A program made the translations under genes and the position numbers. From an uncultured Actinomycetes bacterium (GTDB lineage Bacteria > Actinomycetota > Thermoleophilia > UBA2241): a stretch of DNA of 64,000 nucleotides. The notes below the pieces were generated by a model that worked only from the letters and a program-made list of their open reading frames with translations, searched no databases and was not told the DNA's origin. Location of the stretch: assembly GCA_963709345.1 (NCBI GenBank), contig CAVPVX010000001.1, forward strand, positions 320,001-384,000, written 5' to 3'. Positions 16,386 through 27,001 of this stretch are shown here, in pieces (positions within the stretch are counted from its first letter, which is position 1; each line of letters starts with the position of its first letter).

Positions 16386-16891
16386 AGCTTCGCCTGTCCC
16401 GCGGCAACGGCCTCCGCGTCGACGATCGCGAACAGCAGCTCGCCGCGGCACGCCAGCTGGCCGCCGACGGTCGCCTTGACCTTGGCGCGGCCGACGGGTC
16501 CGTGGACAGCGACGATCTCGGCCTCGAGACGGAGCGTGTCGCCGGGCTTGCACACGCGCTTGAAGCGGACCTTGTCGATGCCGGCGAAGAGGCCGACCTT
16601 GCCGCCGCCCGGGCCCGCATCGGCCGCTGAGTGGGCGGCGGCCGCCGCGCCTTCTGCGGGCGGAGCGGTGGCCGCCGCGATCGTCGCCGTCTGGGCGAGC
16701 GCCTCGACGATGAGCACGCCGGGCATCACCGGGTTGCCGGGGAAGTGCCCGGCGAACCAGTAGTCGTCGTCGCGAAGCGTGCGCGTCGCTACGCAGCGCA
16801 CGCCTTCGACGCCGTCGACGACTTCGTCCACGAGCAGGAAGGGCGGCCGATGCGGAAGCAGGTCGAGGACCTGCTCGTGGGAGAGATTCAC
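16382..16891 (-). CDS. fabZ: 3-hydroxyacyl-ACP dehydratase
   Basis: LPHRPPFLLVD, GHFPGNPVMPGVLIVEALAQ; contains an Ala-rich insertion. Confidence 0.93.
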   Translation of the reverse strand: MNLSHEQVLDLLPHRPPFLLVDEVVDGVEGVRCVATRTLRDDDYWFAGHFPGNPVMPGVLIVEALAQTATIAAATAPPAEGAAAAAHSAADAGPGGGKVGLFAGIDKVRFKRVCKPGDTLRLEAEIVAVHGPVGRAKVKATVGGQLACRGELLFAIVDAEAVAAGQAKL

Positions 16892-17319
16892 AGTGTCTCC
16901 AGTTCCCTGGAGCGGCGCAAATGCCGGCGCTCGAGCTGGATGATGACGGCGGCGGCGGCGATGCCGGCGCCGATGACGTTCTTGACGGGGATGGTGCGGC
17001 CCCCCGGCAGCGGGATGCGGCCGAGCGTTTCGTCGAGCCTGTCCAGCGCGTCGTTGACGGCTCGGCCGAACGGCCTCAGCGAACCGGGAGCCGGCTCGGC
17101 CTCAACCGCGGCCATGACCCTATCGGCGAACCCCGGCGGCGTGGCCAGCTCGAGCCGGCCCCACTCGGCGAGCGCTACGCGCACCGCGGCCGTCTGGGCG
17201 AGCTCCGCGGCGCAGTCCGGGCAGAAGCTCAGGTGAGCTTGGAGCTCCGCGACCTCGAGGTAGCCCGTCTCCCCGTCGATGTACTCGTTGATGCGCTCGC
17301 GAAAGTAGCTGCAGTCCAT
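16888..17319 (-). CDS. Zinc-binding (zf-HC2) anti-sigma factor
   Basis: MDC.......YIDGE ... HLSFCPDC (HxxxCxxC); hydrophobic C-terminal segment. Confidence 0.85.
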   Translation of the reverse strand: MDCSYFRERINEYIDGETGYLEVAELQAHLSFCPDCAAELAQTAAVRVALAEWGRLELATPPGFADRVMAAVEAEPAPGSLRPFGRAVNDALDRLDETLGRIPLPGGRTIPVKNVIGAGIAAAAVIIQLERRHLRRSRELETL

Positions 17320-17894
17320 CAGCGAGCGCTCCGCGTGCCGGCGCCGGCGGGGCCCGTACCGGGCCCGGCGCCCTCCGCCCGCAACCGCAGCCGCAGCGAA
17401 GCGCGCCCGCGATGCACCATCACCTTGACCGTGCCCAGAGGCCGGCCGGTGAGGTCGGCGATCTCCTGGTACGGCAGCCCGTAGACGTCGCGGAGCACCG
17501 TCGGGACGCGGTAGTCCTCAGGGAGGTCTCGCAGGGCCGAAGTGAGCGTCGCCGACGTCACACCCTCGCCCAGCTCCGGCGTGGAGTCGTCGACGAGTTC
17601 CGGCACCTCGACCGGCTCGGGACGGCGCTTCTCGCGGCGCTGGTAGTCGATGGTCGACGAGAGCGCGAGCCGGAACAGCCACGTCGAGAAGGCCGCCTCG
17701 GCGCGGTACTGCGGCAGCTTGCGATAGCAGCGCAGAAAGGCCTCCTGCGCCGCGTCTTCGGCGTCGGTGTGGTTGCCGAGCACGTTGTAAGCCACCGAAT
17801 AGACCATGCCCTGATAGCGCTCCACGATCAGTTTGAAGGCGTCGGCGTCGCCCCCGGCCGCGCGCAGGACCTCTGCGGGCGTAGGGTCGGGCAA
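17319..17894 (-). CDS. ECF RNA polymerase sigma factor (likely TTG start at 17894)
   Basis: DAEDAAQEAF, FSTWLFR, LPYQEIA...GTVK..HRGR. Start placed downstream of the ECF-type promoter. Confidence 0.9.
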   Translation of the reverse strand: MPDPTPAEVLRAAGGDADAFKLIVERYQGMVYSVAYNVLGNHTDAEDAAQEAFLRCYRKLPQYRAEAAFSTWLFRLALSSTIDYQRREKRRPEPVEVPELVDDSTPELGEGVTSATLTSALRDLPEDYRVPTVLRDVYGLPYQEIADLTGRPLGTVKVMVHRGRASLRLRLRAEGAGPGTGPAGAGTRSAR

Positions 17895-17914
17895 CGCTGC
17901 CCACTTGTGGAGTT

Positions 17915-17943
17915 TAGACGCAGACATGCGGCAGGGAGTTACA
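17915..17943 (-). promoter_or_regulatory. ECF-sigma-type promoter TGTAAC-N17-CGTCTA
   Basis: -35 AAC and -10 CGT elements with 17-nt spacing, ending 20 nt before the sigma TTG. Confidence 0.7.
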
Positions 17944-18045
17944 CCTGATCCGGGAGCGGATTCGAAAAGCAATCAAGTGTACACCCGCGCCGACCGGCGC
18001 TCGGCCGCCACCCCACCCGGAGCGGATCGCGCGATTCCGGTATCC

Positions 18046-19032
18046 TCAGGCTGGGCGCCGCAGCGATGCGCCGGCCGCGATCATGAGGAGACGTGCGGCT
18101 ACAAGCGCGGTCAGCCCCTGAGAGTCACGCTCGGGGACGAGCTCGCAGACGTCCACGCCGGCGAGCTCGCAGCGGCTCGCCGTCGCGCGCACCAGCCGGG
18201 CGAGCTGCCAGAACCACAGGCCGCCTGGGGCCGGCCAGAGCGTCCCGGGAGCGCAACTCGGGTCGAGCCCGTCGACGTCGACGGTGATGTACAGGCGGTG
18301 CGACGGGTCGAAGCGCTCGACCAGTTCGTCCAGCGCCACGGCGCCGCGCTCGTGGACCTCTTCGGCGCGCACCAGGACGTTGCCGGCAGCGCGCGCGGCG
18401 AGGACCTCTTCTTCGCGCGCGCTGCCGACGTCGCGGAGACCGACCTGCACGATCGTGCTCACCCAGGGCAGCTCGCGCAGCCGCCGAATGGGGCTCGAGT
18501 ACCCGTCTCGCAGACCGGCGACCTCCTCGCGGAAGTCGAGGTGGGCGTCCACGTGCAGGACGTCCAGCGGCCGGTCGTCCGGCAGACCGCGGACGATCAC
18601 CGGAGGAGCCGAGTGGTCTCCTGCGACCACCAGCGGCACCGCCCCCGCCGCGACGAGGTCGCGGACACCGGCAGTGCCGGCGGCGAGGTCGTCCGGGATG
18701 GCACCAAGCTCGGCGTCACCACAGTCCACGAACCCGGCGGCGGCGCCCGGCGGGACGAGCGGGCCGCCGAGGTCGAAGTCGTAGTGGTCGAGCGCCGCTG
18801 CGTACGAGGCCGCCGCCCGGCGGACGGCGTCCGCGGCGCTCGAGCCCACCTCGGGAACGGCCACGCCCGCTGCGGCAGGCGGCTCGGCAGGCGGCTCGTC
18901 GCCGTAGGGCACGTGCAACGGCAGGCCAAAGAATGCGAAGCGTCGTGCGTCGCAGGCGCCGGACGCTCGCAGGTCGGCCGGCGCCAGGTACGGCGCCCCC
19001 AGAAACGTGTCACCTGCCGGCCTGCGGGTCAT
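18046..19032 (-). CDS. Arginase/agmatinase-family ureohydrolase
   Basis: GDHS, DAHLD, DVDGLDPS.APGT, ELVP metal-binding motifs. Confidence 0.9.
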   Translation of the reverse strand: MTRRPAGDTFLGAPYLAPADLRASGACDARRFAFFGLPLHVPYGDEPPAEPPAAAGVAVPEVGSSAADAVRRAAASYAAALDHYDFDLGGPLVPPGAAAGFVDCGDAELGAIPDDLAAGTAGVRDLVAAGAVPLVVAGDHSAPPVIVRGLPDDRPLDVLHVDAHLDFREEVAGLRDGYSSPIRRLRELPWVSTIVQVGLRDVGSAREEEVLAARAAGNVLVRAEEVHERGAVALDELVERFDPSHRLYITVDVDGLDPSCAPGTLWPAPGGLWFWQLARLVRATASRCELAGVDVCELVPERDSQGLTALVAARLLMIAAGASLRRPA

Positions 19033-19306
19033 ACGGCCATGCTACCCGACGCGGGAAGGGGACGGGAACGACCGGGAACCGCCGCCGTGCCCCAGGTCGC
19101 GCACAGACTGGGCTTGACCCACGTTTCGCTCCGACCCTCGATCCGCCGCCGCGAGGCGTGGTCCGGCGCCTGGGTGTCGCGTTCGTGGTTACCATGAATG
19201 TCGAGCAGCACGACGACTGAATGCCACCCTGACGCCGTCGCGCAGGCCTGGTGAACCGTGATTGCGTCATACCCTGGTCTGTAGTCGTCTTTCGGTGGCG
19301 CCCTGA

Positions 19307-20740
19307 TCAGATCGCGGAGGACGCCTCCACGCGCGTCGCCTGGTCGGCGAGAGCCTCGCCCAAGAGCGTCTCGAGCCCGGCGTTCTGCTCGGCTGTGAGC
19401 ATGAAACCGCGCACATCAGCGAGGAGGCCGGCGAGACGCGAGCGGACGCGGTCGCCGAGCGTCGTGGCACCGTCGGCCGCCCAACGATCGTGCCCCGCGT
19501 GGTCGAGCAGCGACGGCGTCCAGAACTCCCGGTGGTGCCTGCGCGTGTACCTGGTCGCAAGGTGATTGCCGCCGGGTCCGGCGGCCTTGATCTCGTCCAT
19601 GGCGAGCGCGTATTCATCCACCGAGACCTCCCGCATGAACTGGCGCGCGTAGCCCACGAGCTCGTCGCCGAGGACGATCGACTCGTAGGAGCTCTGCAGC
19701 CCCGACTCAAGGTAGCCGACGTCGTGCAGCAGCGTCGCGCGGGAGAGCGAGCCGTAGGCCATGCTCAGTGCGGCCTCGGCGCTCCACTGCTCGTCCAGGA
19801 TCTTCGAGTCTGACATGCCTGCGTACGAGAAGCTCGGCAATCCGTAGTGGCGAGCCATATCCGTGCCGACCTGCTGGGCCAGCAGCGCATCGGGCGCGAC
19901 GTACGGATCGGTCATGGTGCGCATGTCCATAGCGCCGGCGCCGACACCGTAGACGAACGGCGCCCCCGCCTTCACGGACTGCTGCAGCACCAGACCACTG
20001 AGGGTCTCGGCGTTGCCGACGAGCATCGCCGCCGTGATGCTCCGCGGGCAGGTGGCGCCCATGTTGGGGGCCGGCGCGTAGATCAGGGGGATGAGGAGAT
20101 CGGCGCAGCCGATCACCTTGGTCAGCGCGTCCGCGTCGTGCATCAGCGGCGGCGACGGCATCGCGTAGATGCCGAAGCTCTCCTTCTCGCCGCAGAGCGC
20201 CGCCATCTCCTGCATACGAGCGAGGACGCTGCCGTCGCGCGGCGCCACGAGCAGCGGCTTGCGGGTGCCGCGCAGCATCGCGACCACCTGGACGAGGTCG
20301 TCGATCTCCCGAGGGGCGTCCTCGGGCAGACCCATGCTCATGACGAAGTCGATGTTGGGGAGCTTCTCGCAGAGCGTCGCCATGCCCTCGACATCCGCAC
20401 GACGGACGCGGCGACGCTCGCGGGTGTCGGGGTCGCAGACGTAGAGCACATCGGAACCTGTGCCGAAGTAGACCTCGCCGTCACGAAGGATGAGCGGCTC
20501 AGTGTCGCCGCCTCGTGGCTTCAGCAGCCACTCGCGCGGCGCCGTGCGAAGCGCCTCGTCGACGAGCCGCGCGGGGATGCGGACCCGACGACCGTCGACC
20601 TCGGCGCCGGCGGCGCGAAAGCGCTCGAGCGCGGGCTCGTGACGAACGTCGACACCGACACCCGCGAGCAGCTCAAGAGTGGCCTCGTGCAGGCGACGGC
20701 ACTCGGCCTCGCTCCAGAGCGTGAGTACTGCCTTCGACAT
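19307..20740 (-). CDS. MttB-superfamily (non-pyrrolysine) methylamine:corrinoid methyltransferase
   Basis: LHEATLELL..VGV, GATCP.SI, NAETLSG, MDMRT, SDSK..DEQ, HDVGYLESG, GPGGN; no in-frame TAG. Confidence 0.88.
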   Translation of the reverse strand: MSKAVLTLWSEAECRRLHEATLELLAGVGVDVRHEPALERFRAAGAEVDGRRVRIPARLVDEALRTAPREWLLKPRGGDTEPLILRDGEVYFGTGSDVLYVCDPDTRERRRVRRADVEGMATLCEKLPNIDFVMSMGLPEDAPREIDDLVQVVAMLRGTRKPLLVAPRDGSVLARMQEMAALCGEKESFGIYAMPSPPLMHDADALTKVIGCADLLIPLIYAPAPNMGATCPRSITAAMLVGNAETLSGLVLQQSVKAGAPFVYGVGAGAMDMRTMTDPYVAPDALLAQQVGTDMARHYGLPSFSYAGMSDSKILDEQWSAEAALSMAYGSLSRATLLHDVGYLESGLQSSYESIVLGDELVGYARQFMREVSVDEYALAMDEIKAAGPGGNHLATRYTRRHHREFWTPSLLDHAGHDRWAADGATTLGDRVRSRLAGLLADVRGFMLTAEQNAGLETLLGEALADQATRVEASSAI

Positions 20741-20762: not shown

Positions 20763-20841
20763 TGACTGAGGAGTCAACCTATCACGAGCACGAAATGGTA
20801 TGTCAAGCAGGTATGTGGCAATGCTACTCTTCACAAGTGAA
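20763..20841. promoter_or_regulatory. Divergent promoter region with two inverted repeats (candidate operators)
   Basis: TGACT-N4-AGTCA (20763-20776), TTCAC-AA-GTGAA (20830-20841), and a minus-strand TTGACA at 20801-20806. Confidence 0.4.
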
Positions 20842-20894
20842 CGCAGAACAATGTAAGATGCGCCAAGTAACCTCTCTCGCCGACAGGGGGTCGC

Positions 20895-21980
20895 ATGGAT
20901 GGAAGTGCCTCGAAGACGCCGGCTCGCGGAGAGCCGGTCTTCGCGCCGTTCGGTGACGACAACGCCTGTATCGAATGGCTCTGGGCCACCCTGTATGCGC
21001 CCGACGGCGCCAGCACCGTCTGCCGCCGCTGCCGTACCGTGCGCCGCTTTCACCGCGTCTCGCGCCGGCGTGCATACGCCTGCGACCACTGCGGCACGCA
21101 GGTGTATCCCACAGCCGGCACGTTCATGCAGGGCTCCGGCCTGAGCGTCGCCACGTGGTTCACCGCGGCGACGCTCGTCGCCGGCAGCGAAGGCGGTATT
21201 GCCCCGCGCGTCCTCACCGACGAACTCGGCGTGAGCTACAAGACGGCGCTGCGCATGAAGCGGAAACTGGAGGATGCCGCGGCGGGCAGCCCCGACGCCT
21301 CACTGCTCGAACGCTTGTGGCGGGACGCCGGCGGCTCCGGCGGGACCTTCGCGGCCGGCGCGCCCGCTCGCGACCGGTCGTCGCGCGCCCGAGAGAACAT
21401 CCGCGCCGCGGCCTGCCGCGCCTTCGCGGCGCGTGGCCCGTCGGCGACCCGGATCGCGGACATCGCCCGGGAGGCCGGCGTGTCGAGCGCGATCATCCAC
21501 TACTACTACAAGTCCAAGGATGAGGTGCTCCTCGCCGCCCTGCAGTGGGCCAACGAGCACACGAGCCGCCGCCTGGAGAAGCTGCGCGAAGAGACAGACG
21601 ATCCTGTGGAGCTGTTGCGTCTGACGATCGACCTCGCCGTGCCCACCGAGGGCGTGCTGCGCGACGAGTACCTGCTGTGGATCGAGACGTGGGCGCGCGT
21701 GCGGCTGCACCCCAAGCTCCTGGCCGAGTGTGTGGCCATGTCGGCGCGCTGGACAGGCTTCTTCCGGGAGCTCGTCGAGGAGGGCGAGGCGGCCGGGGTG
21801 TTCGACCCCATTGCCCCGGCCGCCGAAATCGCCGAGCGCGTGGTCGCACTCTCGGACGGCCTCAGCTTCCGCTCTGCGATCGGCTACACCGCCATGCACG
21901 AGCAGCGAGTCCGGGAACTGCTCGTGAGCTTCGCAGCCGAACAGCTTCGCGTGCCGGCCGCCGAGCTGGTGCGCCGCTGA
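20895..21980 (+). CDS. Fusion of an IS1595-transposase-like Zn-ribbon/HTH with a TetR (BetI-like) regulator
   Basis: N-terminus F.DD.ACIEWL...CRRC...YACDHC..Q..PTAGTF......WF.A.......GI....L..ELGVSYKTA.RM; C-terminus IADIAREAGVS.AIIHYYY.SKDE plus a TetR ligand domain. Confidence 0.85.
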   Translation: MDGSASKTPARGEPVFAPFGDDNACIEWLWATLYAPDGASTVCRRCRTVRRFHRVSRRRAYACDHCGTQVYPTAGTFMQGSGLSVATWFTAATLVAGSEGGIAPRVLTDELGVSYKTALRMKRKLEDAAAGSPDASLLERLWRDAGGSGGTFAAGAPARDRSSRARENIRAAACRAFAARGPSATRIADIAREAGVSSAIIHYYYKSKDEVLLAALQWANEHTSRRLEKLREETDDPVELLRLTIDLAVPTEGVLRDEYLLWIETWARVRLHPKLLAECVAMSARWTGFFRELVEEGEAAGVFDPIAPAAEIAERVVALSDGLSFRSAIGYTAMHEQRVRELLVSFAAEQLRVPAAELVRR

Positions 21981-22023: not shown

Positions 22024-22187
22024 TCAGCCGACCCCGAGGATCGTCTGACGGTGGCCACGGCCTCGATCGCGTCCTCGGCGTAGCCGTCGGCGCCGATCTC
22101 GTAGCCCTCCTGGGCGAGCCGCTCGACGTCCTCGGCCTCGCCGTCGATCACGGTCTGCTTCATCTGTGCGTAGAGCTCTTCGGACAC
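22024..22187 (-). pseudogene. Internally deleted corrinoid (B12-binding, MttC/MtbC-like) protein remnant
   Basis: AAGGAGG RBS; N-terminus MSEELYAQMKQTVIDGEAEDVERLAQEG joined directly to C-terminus EIGADGYAEDAIEAV; no DxHxxG motif. Confidence 0.75.
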
Positions 22188-22472
22188 TGGGGATCCTCCT
22201 TACGACGCTTGGTCGCCGCGGGCGTCCGCAGGAGCGCGATGGCTTCTGTCTGGAGTCCCGGCGATAGGGGCTGGTCATCTGGCCCGTCAAGCAAGTACGC
22301 GAGTGAACCACCAACGCCAGGTACCTGAAGCAGCGGTGAGCGCAGCAGGGAGATCGGCGGACTACTTGTCTCTCAGGATGCGGCCGAAGACCTCAGACGC
22401 CACCGGGAATGGTGGCTCGCGGAACGTCGAACTGCGATGATGCCGAGAACGATCACAAGAAAGGACACCCGG

Positions 22473-23591
22473 ATGCCTGCCCTCTTCGATCAGACCCAGA
22501 TCGGCACGATGAGGCTTGCCAACCGCTTCGTCCGCTCCGCGACCTGGGAGGGCATGGCGACCGACGACGGATGCTCCACGCCCGAGCTTGACGCGTACGT
22601 CGCGAGGCTCGCCGAGGGAGGCGTCGGTCTGACCATCAGCAGCTACGCCTACGTGAGCCCCGAGGGCAGAGATGCACCGGGCCAGCTAGGCGTCTGCTCC
22701 GACGAGCACGTTCCCGGGCTGACGGCGATGGCGAGGGCGACACACGCGGTAGGTGGCAGGATCGCCCTCCAGCTCGCCCATGCCGGCTGCTTCGGCGAGC
22801 CGTCGCTCTCGGGGTTCGAGCCCGTGGGGCCGTCGTCACTCGAGACCCACGACGGACCGGTGGGACGTTCGCTGTCCGGAGCCGAGCTGGCCGAGCTGCC
22901 GGCAGCGTTCGCCGCCGCGGCCGAGCGAGCCCGGGCAGCCGGCTTCAACGCCGTACAAGTCCACGCGGCTCATGGCTACCTGCTCAGCCAGTTTCTCTCG
23001 CCGTACTTCAACCGGCGCACGGACGGCTACGGAGGTGGCTTCCAGCAGCGCACCCGGCTGCTGCTCGAGGTCGTCGCAGCGGTGCGCGACGCAGTCGGGA
23101 ACGATCACCCAGTACTCGTCAAGGTGAACGCCGAGGACTTCCTTCCCGGCGGCCTCTCGGCGGACGACATGCTGGAAGTCGCCGCCAGACTCGAAGCGGC
23201 CGGCGTCGACGCGATCGAACTGAGTGGCGGGACCGGCCTGGAGGAGGGGCTCAGCTTCTCCCGCATCGGCCGCCCCGCGGCCGGTGAACCCGAGGCCTAC
23301 TACGAGGACGCCGCGCGGCGATTCAAGGCCGAGATCGGCGTCCCGTTGATGCTCGTCGGCGGAATCCGCACCTTCGAGACCGCGGAGCGCCTCGTGGCGG
23401 AGGGCGCAACCGACTACATCGCCCTGTCGCGCCCCCTCATCCGCGAGCCGGGGCTCATCGCCCGCTGGCGCGCCGGGGACACGGCACCAGCCCGCTGCAT
23501 CTCGGACAACGGGTGCTTCGACGCACCCGACGAAGGCCGCGGCCTGTTCTGCCCGGTCGAGGAGCGCGAGGCGAGGCGCGCGAACGGGTGA
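22473..23591 (+). CDS. NADH:flavin oxidoreductase (old yellow enzyme family)
   Basis: NRFVRSATWE, QLAHAG, QVHAAHGYLLSQFLSP..NRRTD.YGG, SRPLIREP, CISDNGC. Confidence 0.92.
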   Translation: MPALFDQTQIGTMRLANRFVRSATWEGMATDDGCSTPELDAYVARLAEGGVGLTISSYAYVSPEGRDAPGQLGVCSDEHVPGLTAMARATHAVGGRIALQLAHAGCFGEPSLSGFEPVGPSSLETHDGPVGRSLSGAELAELPAAFAAAAERARAAGFNAVQVHAAHGYLLSQFLSPYFNRRTDGYGGGFQQRTRLLLEVVAAVRDAVGNDHPVLVKVNAEDFLPGGLSADDMLEVAARLEAAGVDAIELSGGTGLEEGLSFSRIGRPAAGEPEAYYEDAARRFKAEIGVPLMLVGGIRTFETAERLVAEGATDYIALSRPLIREPGLIARWRAGDTAPARCISDNGCFDAPDEGRGLFCPVEEREARRANG

Positions 23592-23645: not shown

Positions 23646-24776
23646 TCAGCGCTCGCGCAGGAACCTGTCGAACGCCTCCAGGCCCGGCTCGAGGCCGAGC
23701 CGCCCAAGCCCGACGCGGAAGTGGTCCGTAGGGGTCTCGGCGATCTCCGAGTAGTAGATGCTCGCCGGCAGCACCAGGACGCCTTCCTTCATGAGGAGGT
23801 CGTGGCAGAACGCCTCGACGTCCCCGCCCTTGTACCGCGGGAAGCAGACGCACCCGCCGACCGGCGGCTGCCAGTCGAAGAGCTCCTCCCAGCGGGCAAA
23901 GAAGTCGTCGAAGAGCGGCCGGTTGGCGGCGATGACCCCCCGGTTGCGCTCCCAGATCCGTTCGCGGTTGCGGAGCGCGAGCGCCGTCAGATACTCCGTC
24001 GGTCCCGCGTTGCAGATCGTCGTGTAGTGCTTGCGCTTCTCCAGCCGCTCCAGCAATCCCCGGTCGCGACAGGCCAGCCAGCCGATGCGCAATCCCGGCA
24101 GTCCGTAGGACTTGGAGGCCACGTTGAGTGAGACGGCGGTCTCAGACAGGTCCGCGGCCTGCGAGATGGTCCGCGCGGGGTCGAACTCGATGCCGCGGTA
24201 GACCTCGTCGCAGAACAGGCGGATGCCGCGCGCCTCGCACATCGCGGCGAGCTCGCAGAAGACGGCCTCGTCGGGAACGTGGCCGGTCGGGTTGTTCGGG
24301 AAGTTGACGGCGACCAGCTTCGTGCTCGGACGCAGCAGGCCGCGCAGATCATCGAGGTCGAGGGCCCAGCCGTTCTCACGGCGCATGACCAGAGGGCTGA
24401 CATCCGCACCTGTCGCAAGGGGCACGGTCTCCATCGACTGGTAGCAGGGCACCGTGACGACGGCGTGGTCACCGGGCCCGACGAGCTCCTGCATCGCCCA
24501 GAAGAGAGCCTCCTGAGCGCCGGTGAAGGCGAGCACGTGCTCCGCCTCCACGCGCTCGTAGGTGCCGGCGACTGCCTCGCGCAGGTTCTCGCTGCCCCAC
24601 GAGTCGATGTACGTGAGCGGCATCCGCATGAAGCCTTCGCGGTCGGCGTCGCTACCCATGGCAAGGAGCTCCTCGAGGGTGATGCTCTCGGCGTCGGATG
24701 CGGTGAGGTGATGCCGAACCGTGAGCTCCCACTTGCCGAGGAACTCTTCGAGACGGAACGTGCGCAGCGGCTTCAT
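23646..24776 (-). CDS. PLP-dependent class I/II aminotransferase-like enzyme
   Basis: NFPNNPTG, DEVY, SKSYGLPGLRIGW. Confidence 0.9.
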   Translation of the reverse strand: MKPLRTFRLEEFLGKWELTVRHHLTASDAESITLEELLAMGSDADREGFMRMPLTYIDSWGSENLREAVAGTYERVEAEHVLAFTGAQEALFWAMQELVGPGDHAVVTVPCYQSMETVPLATGADVSPLVMRRENGWALDLDDLRGLLRPSTKLVAVNFPNNPTGHVPDEAVFCELAAMCEARGIRLFCDEVYRGIEFDPARTISQAADLSETAVSLNVASKSYGLPGLRIGWLACRDRGLLERLEKRKHYTTICNAGPTEYLTALALRNRERIWERNRGVIAANRPLFDDFFARWEELFDWQPPVGGCVCFPRYKGGDVEAFCHDLLMKEGVLVLPASIYYSEIAETPTDHFRVGLGRLGLEPGLEAFDRFLRER

Positions 24777-25390
24777 GAGCGTGCCTCCTTGAGCAAGGCG
24801 TAGACGGTGGTGCGGGACACGCCGAGGGCGCGACCGGCGTGAGCGGCGGCGTGGCGGGTGGCAAACAGGCCGCGCTCGTCCATGAGGCGGACGAGCGTCA
24901 AGCGCTGGTCACGGGTGAGGCGGTCACGACGGAGGCGGCGCGAGCGGCACTCCTCGTCGACCAGGAGGAGGATCTGCTCGCGCCAGTCGCGGTCAAAGAG
25001 CTCGGGCGGGCGCCCCTGGACTGCGGCAGCGAATCGCGTCAGCAGCTCTATGGTGCCGTCGAACGGCGAGCGGTCGAAGTCGATGCAGAGCAGACCGCGC
25101 TTGGCGCCCTTGGCGTTGTGCAGAACAACGCTTACGGAAGTGAGCGCGCGCCCGTCGGCCAGGACCTTCGGGTAGGGGCCGCTGACGCGTGCGCCATCCG
25201 AGTACTCGGGCAGCTCGTCGATCAAAGATCTGTCACCGACCCTGCGCTCGGAGATGGGGTTCCAGATGGCGGCGATGCGGCCACGGCGGATGTCGTGGAT
25301 GGCGACTTCGGCGTACGGATGGAGCAGCGCGACGACAGCCTCACAGACCGGCACATGCGGCTCAAGCCATGCGGGGTGACTTGGTCTCAT
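24773..25390 (-). CDS. YheO/DauR-like PAS-HTH transcriptional regulator
   Basis: LLHPYAEVAIHD, S.R.VGD, LCIDFD, GLF.......LGVSRTTVY. Confidence 0.85.
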   Translation of the reverse strand: MRPSHPAWLEPHVPVCEAVVALLHPYAEVAIHDIRRGRIAAIWNPISERRVGDRSLIDELPEYSDGARVSGPYPKVLADGRALTSVSVVLHNAKGAKRGLLCIDFDRSPFDGTIELLTRFAAAVQGRPPELFDRDWREQILLLVDEECRSRRLRRDRLTRDQRLTLVRLMDERGLFATRHAAAHAGRALGVSRTTVYALLKEARS

Positions 25391-25398
25391 GGCCGAAC

Positions 25399-25427
25399 AG
25401 TATGTCCGTTCCGAACAGTCTGTCAAC
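25399..25427 (-). promoter_or_regulatory. Sigma-A-type promoter TTGACA-N17-CATACT, nearly leaderless
   Basis: Minus strand TTGACAGACTGTTCGGAACGGACATACTGTTCGGCCATG; contains ACTGTTCGG twice. Confidence 0.55.
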
Positions 25428-25528
25428 AAAGCGGATGGTCATGCCGTGTGCATCGGGCTTGACGCACGCGGCCGGGCGGTCCCGGAGGCGGGAATCGCCG
25501 CCGGCGTCGCCTACCCGGATGGTCCGTG

Positions 25529-27001
<1,473 letters not shown>

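Follow-up and report, generated by a model that had tools for sequence, protein, structure and literature searches.

Why should a gene that stands back to back with a metabolic methyltransferase gene begin like a transposase and end like a repressor? The question is posed by a 64,000-nt stretch of DNA (hereafter the window; contig CAVPVX010000001.1 of assembly GCA_963709345.1, positions 320,001 to 384,000, forward strand) from an uncultured bacterium of the Thermoleophilia lineage UBA2241 (Actinomycetota), in which a single open reading frame (ORF), here referred to as REG, joins an N-terminal module (N-module) of the kind found in transposases of IS1595-type insertion sequences (IS) to a TetR-family regulator of the BetI type. 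We suggest that REG is very probably a genuine regulator of the adjacent methyltransferase (mttB) and corrinoid-protein genes, built of two domains, one of them derived from a transposase, and maintained by selection. The evidence supports its description as a TetR repressor that carries a DNA-binding head exapted from IS1595 and has a distinctive control region, made up of a palindrome and a series of phased boxes.

REG belongs to the TetR family, having both domains that define it: the matches to TetR_N (PF00440) and to the BetI-type TetR_C_6 (PF13977) score 51.3 and 54.4 bits, against Pfam cut-offs of 24 and 27, respectively, and residues 208-351 are helical in the structure model and homologous in sequence to solved TetR chains. 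In front of these domains lie a match to Zn_ribbon_IS1595 (PF12760) at residues 21-69 (E 8.2e-5, Pfam protein scan) and one to positions 3-53 of the IS1595 transposase model NF033547 at residues 82-131 (E 1.6e-5, NCBIfam), the latter corresponding to the helices that join the ribbon to the DDE domain in the transposase. The four ribbon cysteines, C43, C46, C63, and C66, are invariant in 41/41 aligned family members, as well as in 30/30 N-modules, among which 13 belong to genuine transposases. No match to the DDE domain (PF12762) was found in the REG protein by Pfam scan. REG is thus not a transposase, having no DDE domain, no IS ends, and only one copy, nor is it a BetI equivalog, as it reaches 66.8 bits against the 201.3 set for TIGR03384 and 60.3 against 118 for NF001978 (NCBIfam). 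An initial annotation, made from the letters alone, had read the ORF in much the same way, with an IS1595-type N-terminus bearing all four zinc ligands, a Gly/Ala linker leading into a TetR helix-turn-helix (HTH) and a BetI-like ligand domain where the DDE domain should begin, host-like codons, and neither IS ends nor a DDE remnant. Each of these observations is borne out, codon usage included: the N-module, the TetR part, and mttB have GC contents at third codon positions of 0.86, 0.90, and 0.88, respectively.

The AlphaFold2 model of full-length REG (41 family members) has a mean predicted local distance difference test score (pLDDT) of 85.5, its low-confidence parts being residues 1-17 and the disordered, Gly/Ala-rich linker at 147-159. 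When modelled alone (30 sequences; pLDDT 92.9, predicted template modelling score [pTM] 0.85), the N-module consists of one helix, a three-stranded ribbon with the four cysteines (pLDDT >90 in all strands), a three-helix bundle (residues 85-97, 104-111, and 115-129 in the full-length model), and one further helix. We assign it to no fold family, because the hits of a wide VIA-align fold search, all to generic HTH proteins (ZHX1 homeodomain, MarR family, TrpR, DnaA domain IV), had Z scores of 4.8 or less, in the range which the tool itself calls common. Foldseek returned nothing at E<=0.001 from the PDB, and the best match of the N-module profile among PDB sequences was at E 0.14.

Kinship with transposases is seen at the level of primary sequence. 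In scans of genome collections, residues 19-137 of REG were 36-47% identical to the N-termini of proteins of 303-320 amino acids (aa) from Acidobacteriota, Chloroflexota, and Solirubrobacterales, the last of these belonging to the window's own class. All six of the scanned proteins of this size carry Zn_ribbon_IS1595 together with DDE_Tnp_IS1595 (ISXO2-like), and in all six the DDE domain starts at residues 136-146, which is where REG changes to a helix of its own followed by the linker. Invariant across 17 REG modules and 13 transposase N-termini are the four cysteines as well as R38, Y45, D48, G51, P56, T60, W72, A75, G96, and Y99 (alignment numbering). Further to that, an LW..(Y/F)APDG insertion is common to REG and the Thermoleophilia transposases and is absent from other transposase lineages, while a basic ribbon hairpin, RRFHRVSRRRAYAC, is invariant in the REG family and common to transposases. 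On these alignments the N-module appears to originate from an actinobacterial ISXO2-like IS1595 lineage, cut exactly at the DDE border.

REG is not a mobile element. It is a single-copy gene in a 3.1-Mb genome that is 98% complete, where it is also the only zinc-ribbon match of a six-frame search; the same genome gave 0 matches to DDE_Tnp_IS1595 at E<=0.01, and no IS-like terminal inverted repeats flank REG.

REG is one member of a family of such fusions. A word-indexed protein search with REG produced 185 matches among 8000 scored candidates. Among the 120 matches listed, 91 show the strict CxxC...CxxCG pattern and nine more fail it yet have all four cysteines when read by eye, so that the module is present in 100/120; the remaining 20 (of which P0067, P0101, P0104, P0113, and P0116 were read individually) are shorter, frameshifted, or TetR-only entries. 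Identity to REG ranges from 34 to 84% in the 41-sequence alignment. The family is thus already in sequence databases, with Nonomuraea members named 'TetR/AcrR family' proteins and some others labelled 'AcrR family transcriptional regulator/transposase-like protein' by JGI. Among 301 sampled Thermoleophilia genomes, 26 have a match at E<=1e-30 and 23 a full-length or nearly full-length fusion; all 23 come from the family to which the window belongs, represented by 56 genomes with the window's counted in, and none was found in the 11 other families sampled. A literature search, with subscription journals outside its coverage, found no description of a TetR-IS1595 fusion, in agreement with the initial annotation, which knew of no such regulator.

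Selection on the N-module was estimated from the window and 21 loci (231 pairs, Nei-Gojobori; L016, cut by a contig end, and the frameshifted L021 were left out). Median ratios of nonsynonymous to synonymous substitution (dN/dS) were 0.117 for the whole N-module (0.050 for the zinc ribbon and 0.222 for its HTH part), 0.228 for the linker, 0.034 for TetR_N, and 0.163 for TetR_C. Of the 20 columns that do not vary in the 41-member alignment, 12 fall within the N-module. By the codon-level measure the N-module is under purifying selection. Two possibilities that the initial annotation had left room for, a fusion unique to this assembly and neutral evolution of its N-terminal part, are refuted by the spread of the family and by these ratios, respectively. 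A third, translation starting at the TetR domain, is untenable because the N-terminal part is conserved at the protein level.

In a TetR-domain tree of 29 fusions and 14 TetR-only relatives, 27 of the fusions lie on one side of a branch with a support of 95 (Shimodaira-Hasegawa-like approximate likelihood ratio test). The other two, P0077 and the long-branched P0111, group with TetR-only proteins, and L077 is also on a long branch. Although the tree needs two changes, a single clade of fusions is not rejected by the approximately unbiased test (p 0.062), and a single origin is possible. The module itself reaches far beyond this family: its profile matched 17,642 representative proteins at E<=1e-3, a count that falls to 6,703 at E<=1e-10 and to 363 at E<=1e-30. 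Fourteen of the best 150 matches, picked by length, were scanned with Pfam and comprised 6 TetR fusions, 3 DDE transposases, and 5 others, namely a MarR_2 fusion (P0220), an HTH_11+WYL+WCX fusion (P0223), an NHL-repeat protein (P0266), and two proteins in which the ribbon is accompanied by no other domain above cut-off (P0170, of 801 aa with a weak HTH_11 match, and P0224). The presence of an IS1595 head on MarR, WYL, and NHL proteins means that it may have been recruited more than once, with P0220, P0223, P0266, and P0170 as possible further domestications.

What would such a protein regulate? REG is divergent from an MttB-family (MtgB-like) gene in 23/23 close loci, and this arrangement is kept in the distant members L059 (54%) and L064 (47%). 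The 23 include L020, a diverged paralogous pair in the same metagenome-assembled genome as L001 (67% identity for REG, 56% for MttB). The window's MttB is not the trimethylamine enzyme: it scores 285.6 bits against the 525 set for the equivalog model TIGR02369, has no in-frame amber (pyrrolysine) codon, and finds its closest solved chains in glycine betaine methyltransferase (9yce/2qne, E 6e-59; 4e-39 for the trimethylamine enzyme). In relatives such as L006 and L018 an intact gene for a 216-aa corrinoid (B12-binding) protein is convergent with REG. More distant members, L061, L067, and Nonomuraea L062, L065, and L066, have a divergent MmgE/PrpD-family gene in place of mttB.

The mttB-REG intergenic regions of 24 loci align to a common consensus, which reads CTGACT-N5-GTCAA ... 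CACGCTCGAAATGGAATGTCAAGCAnGTA - ~16 - TTCACAAGT - ~14 - GTGTACnATGCGCCAAGTAA on the REG strand. Its first element, a palindrome of the form TGAC-N6-GTCA, is exact in 15 loci and has one mismatch in the other nine, L020 (TTACTCGTGAGTCA) included. The elements that follow are direct repeats, whose CAAG cores are 29-31 bp apart in 24/24 loci. A REG promoter, TTCACA-18-TAAGAT, is predicted at 20830-20859 (1 found by promoter scan against 0.1 expected), which places the last box at the transcription start. For mttB, a putative -10 element, TAGGTT (complement of 20776-20781), was read by eye 19 nt from the -35; the scan tool takes spacers of 16-18 nt only. The candidate mttB promoter would have the palindrome over its start. 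The initial annotation had pointed to two different inverted repeats here. That at 20763-20776 is real and conserved, whereas that at 20830-20841 (TTCACaaGTGAA) is not a conserved palindrome, as its full inverted repeat (with GAA following) exists in only 2/24 loci, the window and L001; it is instead one of the phased CAAG boxes. A control region of this layout, with a palindrome and phased boxes shared across loci, is new here.

A second set of boxes precedes the corrinoid gene, where 19 rows, drawn from the window and 17 loci (18 sources in all), show it as GTCAA(G/C)CAAGTAA-N13-GCGCCAAGTATCAG-~N20-GCAAGTAA followed by CGGAC-N7-GTCCG, or, written otherwise, as GTCAAgCAAGTA-N13-GCGCCAAGTA-N20-GCAAGTAA. 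The reverse complement of its first box supplies a -35-like TTGAC(G), 17 nt before TATCGT. In the window only this first box survives: the next two are mutated (CCAGGTA and GCAGGGAG) and the distal palindrome has lost one arm, a decay that coincides with the reduction of the corrinoid gene itself to a remnant. The 12-mer GTCAAGCANGTA occurs four times in the 3.1 Mb, twice at the mttB-REG and corrinoid promoters and twice inside ORFs, the latter two probably by chance. Same-strand clusters of at least three CAAGYA boxes number three in the genome; in the one on contig C11 the boxes are 26 and 27 bp apart and precede a second copy of the corrinoid gene. From these shared sites the predicted regulon comprises mttB and the corrinoid-protein gene. 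The earlier proposal that REG regulates the divergent mttB therefore stands as far as synteny in 23/23 loci, L059 and L064, and the conserved intergenic sites go; it was too narrow in that the corrinoid gene belongs with mttB and distant members stand beside MmgE/PrpD.

Which of the two heads reads which site can be approached through relatives that have only one of them. Six TetR-only relatives, with TetR domains 41-55% identical to that of REG, have palindromes just upstream, ATTGACTCAAGCGTCAAT in L069 and ACTGACGCGTCAGT in L070, both of the TGAC-N6-GTCA type, and ACTGGACGTCCAGT in L071-L074 (from printed sequence). A CAAGYA box is found within 330 nt upstream of none of the six. On this ground we assign TGAC-N6-GTCA to the TetR head and regard the boxes as a feature of the fusion. 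The boxes also persist where REG has other neighbours. Of 17 distant loci, 9 have CAAGTA on the REG strand no more than 200 nt from the module, where 0.019 per locus would be expected (binomial 7e-12, a figure that overstates the case as the loci are related). The full triple box is present in L059, L061, L138, and L139; in Nonomuraea, with its MmgE/PrpD neighbour, TGTCAAGGA and ACAAGTA are 59 bp apart, and L067, with a neighbour of the same family, has a spacing of 58 bp. That the N-module reads the phased boxes is a tentative conclusion, on which our judgement is finely balanced and leans slightly towards doubt.

Taken together, we are somewhat inclined to see in REG a two-headed, ligand-responsive TetR repressor, with its N-modules on the boxes and its TetR domains on the palindrome, keeping both promoters shut. 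Such a protein would have arisen by fusion of an IS1595 transposase DNA-binding module to the N-terminus of a TetR regulator, and selection has since maintained the fusion. A TetR dimer would sit on the TGAC-N6-GTCA palindrome overlapping the start of the mttB transcript, and the flexibly tethered N-modules would reach the CAAG(T/C)A boxes 29-31 bp apart, which lie over the putative mttB -35, the REG -35, and the REG transcription start, with the second set at the corrinoid-protein promoter. With both heads so placed, one oligomeric assembly would shut the two divergent promoters and autoregulate REG, until a small molecule in the BetI-type pocket releases it from DNA; the ligand is probably a quaternary amine or a related substrate of the MtgB-like methyltransferase. 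It can be imagined, as an unlikely extension of this scheme, that the head and its DNA sites both came from an IS1595 element, the boxes descending from transposase-binding sites at an IS end, that the composite operator (palindrome plus direct repeats, one box per ~3 helical turns) wraps or loops two back-to-back promoters, and that the head is a recurrent plug-in for one-component regulators of the TetR, MarR, and WYL types.

A number of observations weigh against the two-headed scheme or parts of it. In the Pfam protein scan the ribbon scored 22.9 bits, slightly under the curated cut-off of 25.4 (26.3 bits, and over it, in the six-frame genome search), and the pTM of 0.56 for full-length REG leaves the relative placement of the two halves unfixed. 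The palindrome is inexact in 9/24 loci, and a pattern search did not find it in the Nonomuraea loci. Eight of the 17 distant loci lack a strict box within 200 nt (L060, L064, L065, L130, L131, and L132, as well as L061 and L066, whose boxes lie just outside the counted stretch), and CAAGYA is not enriched across the whole window (26 occurrences against 19 +/- 4), so that weight attaches only to the clustered, phased boxes. The nature of the ligand was guessed from domain type and neighbours. Other such points lend themselves to an alternative in which the fusion and its target genes are the same, and the N-module does not read the CAAG boxes, these being TetR half-sites and/or promoter elements, while the module would clamp DNA non-specifically, mediate oligomerisation or protein contacts, or sense zinc or redox state. 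The boxes do coincide with predicted promoter hexamers (the -35s) and the transcription start, meaning that part of their conservation could reflect promoter function; their core resembles the right arm of the palindrome, GTCAAG, and could make them TetR half-sites; and the TetR-only locus L069 has GTCAAGTTA next to its palindrome. Moreover, the transposase-invariant STRCGISAKQ is lost in REG, the recognition helix in its clade reads YKTALRM, not YKTAWRM, and the HTH part of the module shows weaker constraint than its transposase counterpart; its dN/dS is 0.22, as opposed to 0.05 for the ribbon. Nevertheless, the absence of CAAGYA boxes from all six TetR-only relatives, despite a very similar TetR HTH, is not what would be expected of half-sites, direct repeats at a fixed phase of 29-31 bp are unusual for a TetR dimer that reads a palindrome, and the invariant basic hairpin shared with transposases fits a retained contact with nucleic acid. 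On balance we doubt this alternative while giving it appreciable weight.

It is very improbable that the module still recognises IS1595 ends and that REG acts as an inhibitor or regulator of transposition after the manner of a truncated transposase, its position beside mttB being incidental. Truncated transposases with only the DNA-binding part act as inhibitors in other IS families, and other Thermoleophilia do have IS1595 transposases whose N-termini are related. The genome, however, has no IS1595 DDE domain and no zinc-ribbon match other than REG, and neither the constant pairing with a divergent metabolic gene (23/23), nor the fused ligand-binding TetR domain, nor the common sites at the mttB and corrinoid promoters would be accounted for. 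That the fusion is an artefact, joined in assembly or gene calling or bypassed in vivo by a start at the TetR domain, is barely conceivable. Homologue assemblies P0042, P0043, P0104, and P0112 are visibly frameshifted, but the frame is uninterrupted in 21 independent loci, in cultured Nonomuraea genomes, and in 23 Thermoleophilia genomes, constraint at the protein level spans the junction, and no ATG, GTG, or TTG start at a conserved position was seen before the TetR domain.

The two-headed repressor that we favour has partial counterparts among known systems. With BetI-type repressors it shares the TetR_N HTH and TetR_C_6; the closest solved chains are the actinobacterial BetI-type 4ich, 4kwa, 4jnn, and 4nel, with a profile E of ~1e-40 to 4ich and 4kwa. 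BetI itself has a divergent arrangement, a palindromic operator, and a link to quaternary-amine metabolism, and REG resembles it in its divergent arrangement, in a palindromic operator candidate overlapping the promoter, and in the quaternary-amine link. It differs from these repressors in ~150 extra N-terminal residues that contain the zinc ribbon and a second HTH. IS1595 (ISXO2-like) transposases have the Cys4 ribbon and HTH at 36-47% identity and in the same order and length; unlike them, REG has no DDE domain, no terminal repeats, a single copy, and no partner IS in its genome. More than one HTH in a single TetR-family polypeptide is found in Mce3R (9b7y, 406 aa) too, although Mce3R is commonly described as a tandem TetR duplication, whereas the second DNA-binding part of REG is unrelated to the first and comes from a mobile element.

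Eukaryotes have drawn heavily on domesticated transposase DNA-binding domains for their transcription factors. To our knowledge few such cases have been described in bacteria, TldR being a recent one. TldRs, TnpB-derived RNA-guided repressors, are a precedent for a bacterial transposon-encoded protein turned into a transcription factor (PMC10705468). TldR stems from another transposon family, retains its entire nuclease in inactivated form, and is RNA-guided, whereas REG keeps only a protein DNA-binding head and has it fused to a classical one-component regulator. REG thus presents the protein-only DNA-binding head of a common IS family fixed on a one-component repressor and selected across at least two actinobacterial classes. 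Its cis layout, a palindrome with phased direct repeats at two or three promoters, offers a simple system for the effect of a second, unrelated DNA-binding domain on TetR operator logic, and its position opens a way into how uncultured soil Thermoleophilia regulate corrinoid-dependent methyltransferases of the non-pyrrolysine MttB type. Proteins of the MarR, WYL, and NHL types that bear the same head hint at a wider unnoticed pool, perhaps counted as transposases by annotation pipelines; PF12760 is used as a transposase marker in the method of one paper (PMC13639185).

Table 1. Coordinates of REG, its domains, the elements of its control region, and the flanking genes (positions in the window)
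Feature	Coordinates	Strand	Remarks
Divergent MttB-superfamily methyltransferase gene	19307..20740	-	PF06253 251 bits, residues 6-454; no in-frame stop (non-pyrrolysine type)
Palindrome TGACTgaggAGTCA, candidate TetR-domain operator	20763..20776	.	just downstream of putative mttB -10
Box ATGTCAAGCAGGTA	20800..20813	+	conserved in 24/24 loci; reverse complement holds putative mttB -35 TTGACA (20801-20806)
Box TTCACAAGT	20830..20838	+	includes predicted REG promoter -35 TTCACA; exact in 22/24 loci, two changes each in L002 and L020
Putative REG -10 TAAGAT	20854..20859	+	promoter scan
Box GCGCCAAGTAA	20860..20870	+	at predicted REG transcription start, 25 nt before ATG
REG regulator gene	20895..21980	+	one 361-aa ORF; IS1595-type N-module and BetI-type TetR; 100% match to database cluster P0001
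Cys4 zinc ribbon	20949..21119	+	residues 19-75; C43, C46, C63, C66; PF12760; dN/dS 0.05
Three-helix HTH-like bundle of N-module	21120..21299	+	residues 76-135 (...LGVSYKTALRMKRK...); NF033547; dN/dS 0.22
Family-specific helix (residues 135-146) and Gly/Ala linker (residues 147-159)	21300..21389	+	model and alignment
TetR_N helix-turn-helix	21390..21539	+	PF00440 at residues 169-215; dN/dS 0.034
BetI-type TetR C-terminal ligand and dimerisation domain	21603..21947	+	PF13977 at residues 237-351
Corrinoid (B12-binding) gene remnant	22024..22187	-	first ~28 codons joined to last ~20; frame change before last 7 codons
First box of corrinoid-gene promoter cluster, GTCAAGCAAGTA	22286..22297	+	sole surviving box of the cluster in window

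Some further observations concern the homologues of REG and of its N-module. In P0042, P0043, P0104, and P0112 the ORFs read through frameshifts that leave TetR or N-module parts out of frame, probably owing to indel errors of long-read metagenome assemblies; P0112, which at 329 aa looks 'transposase-sized', is an artefact of this kind. The solved chain 4ich (311 aa) has an N-terminal extension of ~100 residues, absent from 4kwa, 4jnn, and 4nel, to which the N-module profile gave no match at E<=10. Among full-length transposases, IS1595-type genes in L080/L081, and also in L024/L089 (Solirubrobacterales, Acidobacteriota), have syntenic flanks, which are ~78-81% identical in L080/L081; the genes could be ancient or immobile, or full-length copies that have themselves been domesticated. 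A comparison of the CAAGTA box with IS1595 termini was abandoned, as no near-identical copies were among the loci compared and no ends can be defined where similarity stops at the coding region or else continues into syntenic flanks. The sequence ATGTCAAGTAG just upstream of the start of one L080 transposase copy was treated as an anecdote and not used as evidence.

The second corrinoid copy, at C11:41997-42800 and thus outside the window, retains all three CAAGTA boxes of its promoter intact, and its leader is almost the same as that of the window remnant. In front of it stands the tail of an aminotransferase paralogue, and the gene reads through two frame changes, which may be assembly error or decay. 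Two box clusters on contig C7 were taken as chance, since they fall largely inside coding sequence or at its end, as judged from sequence alone.

Around the locus, gene content varies between relatives. A second MttB paralogue, with or without a corrinoid gene of its own, is located downstream of REG in L003, L023, L059, and L060. Nonomuraea L062 has ABC-transporter genes beyond MmgE/PrpD, and an amidohydrolase gene lies downstream in L062, L065, and L066. In relatives a gene for a 631-aa SBP_bac_5 solute-binding protein is situated between mttB and an arginase-family gene (L006 2466-4361, corresponding to window 19033-19306); it is missing from the window, where mttB therefore abuts the arginase-family gene at 18046-19032. 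Near mttB, an extracytoplasmic function (ECF) sigma factor (Sigma70_r2/r4) and a zf-HC2 anti-sigma factor form a pair at 16888-17972 (-) that is syntenic in most relatives. On the other side, a gene for an Old Yellow Enzyme (OYE)-type flavin oxidoreductase (22437-23591) comes next after the corrinoid remnant and the 22188-22436 interval, as in L018, and is followed by a conserved block at 23646-26995 (-), consisting of a class I/II aminotransferase, a YheO-like PAS + HTH regulator, and a beta-eliminating lyase, which accompanies the locus in many relatives.

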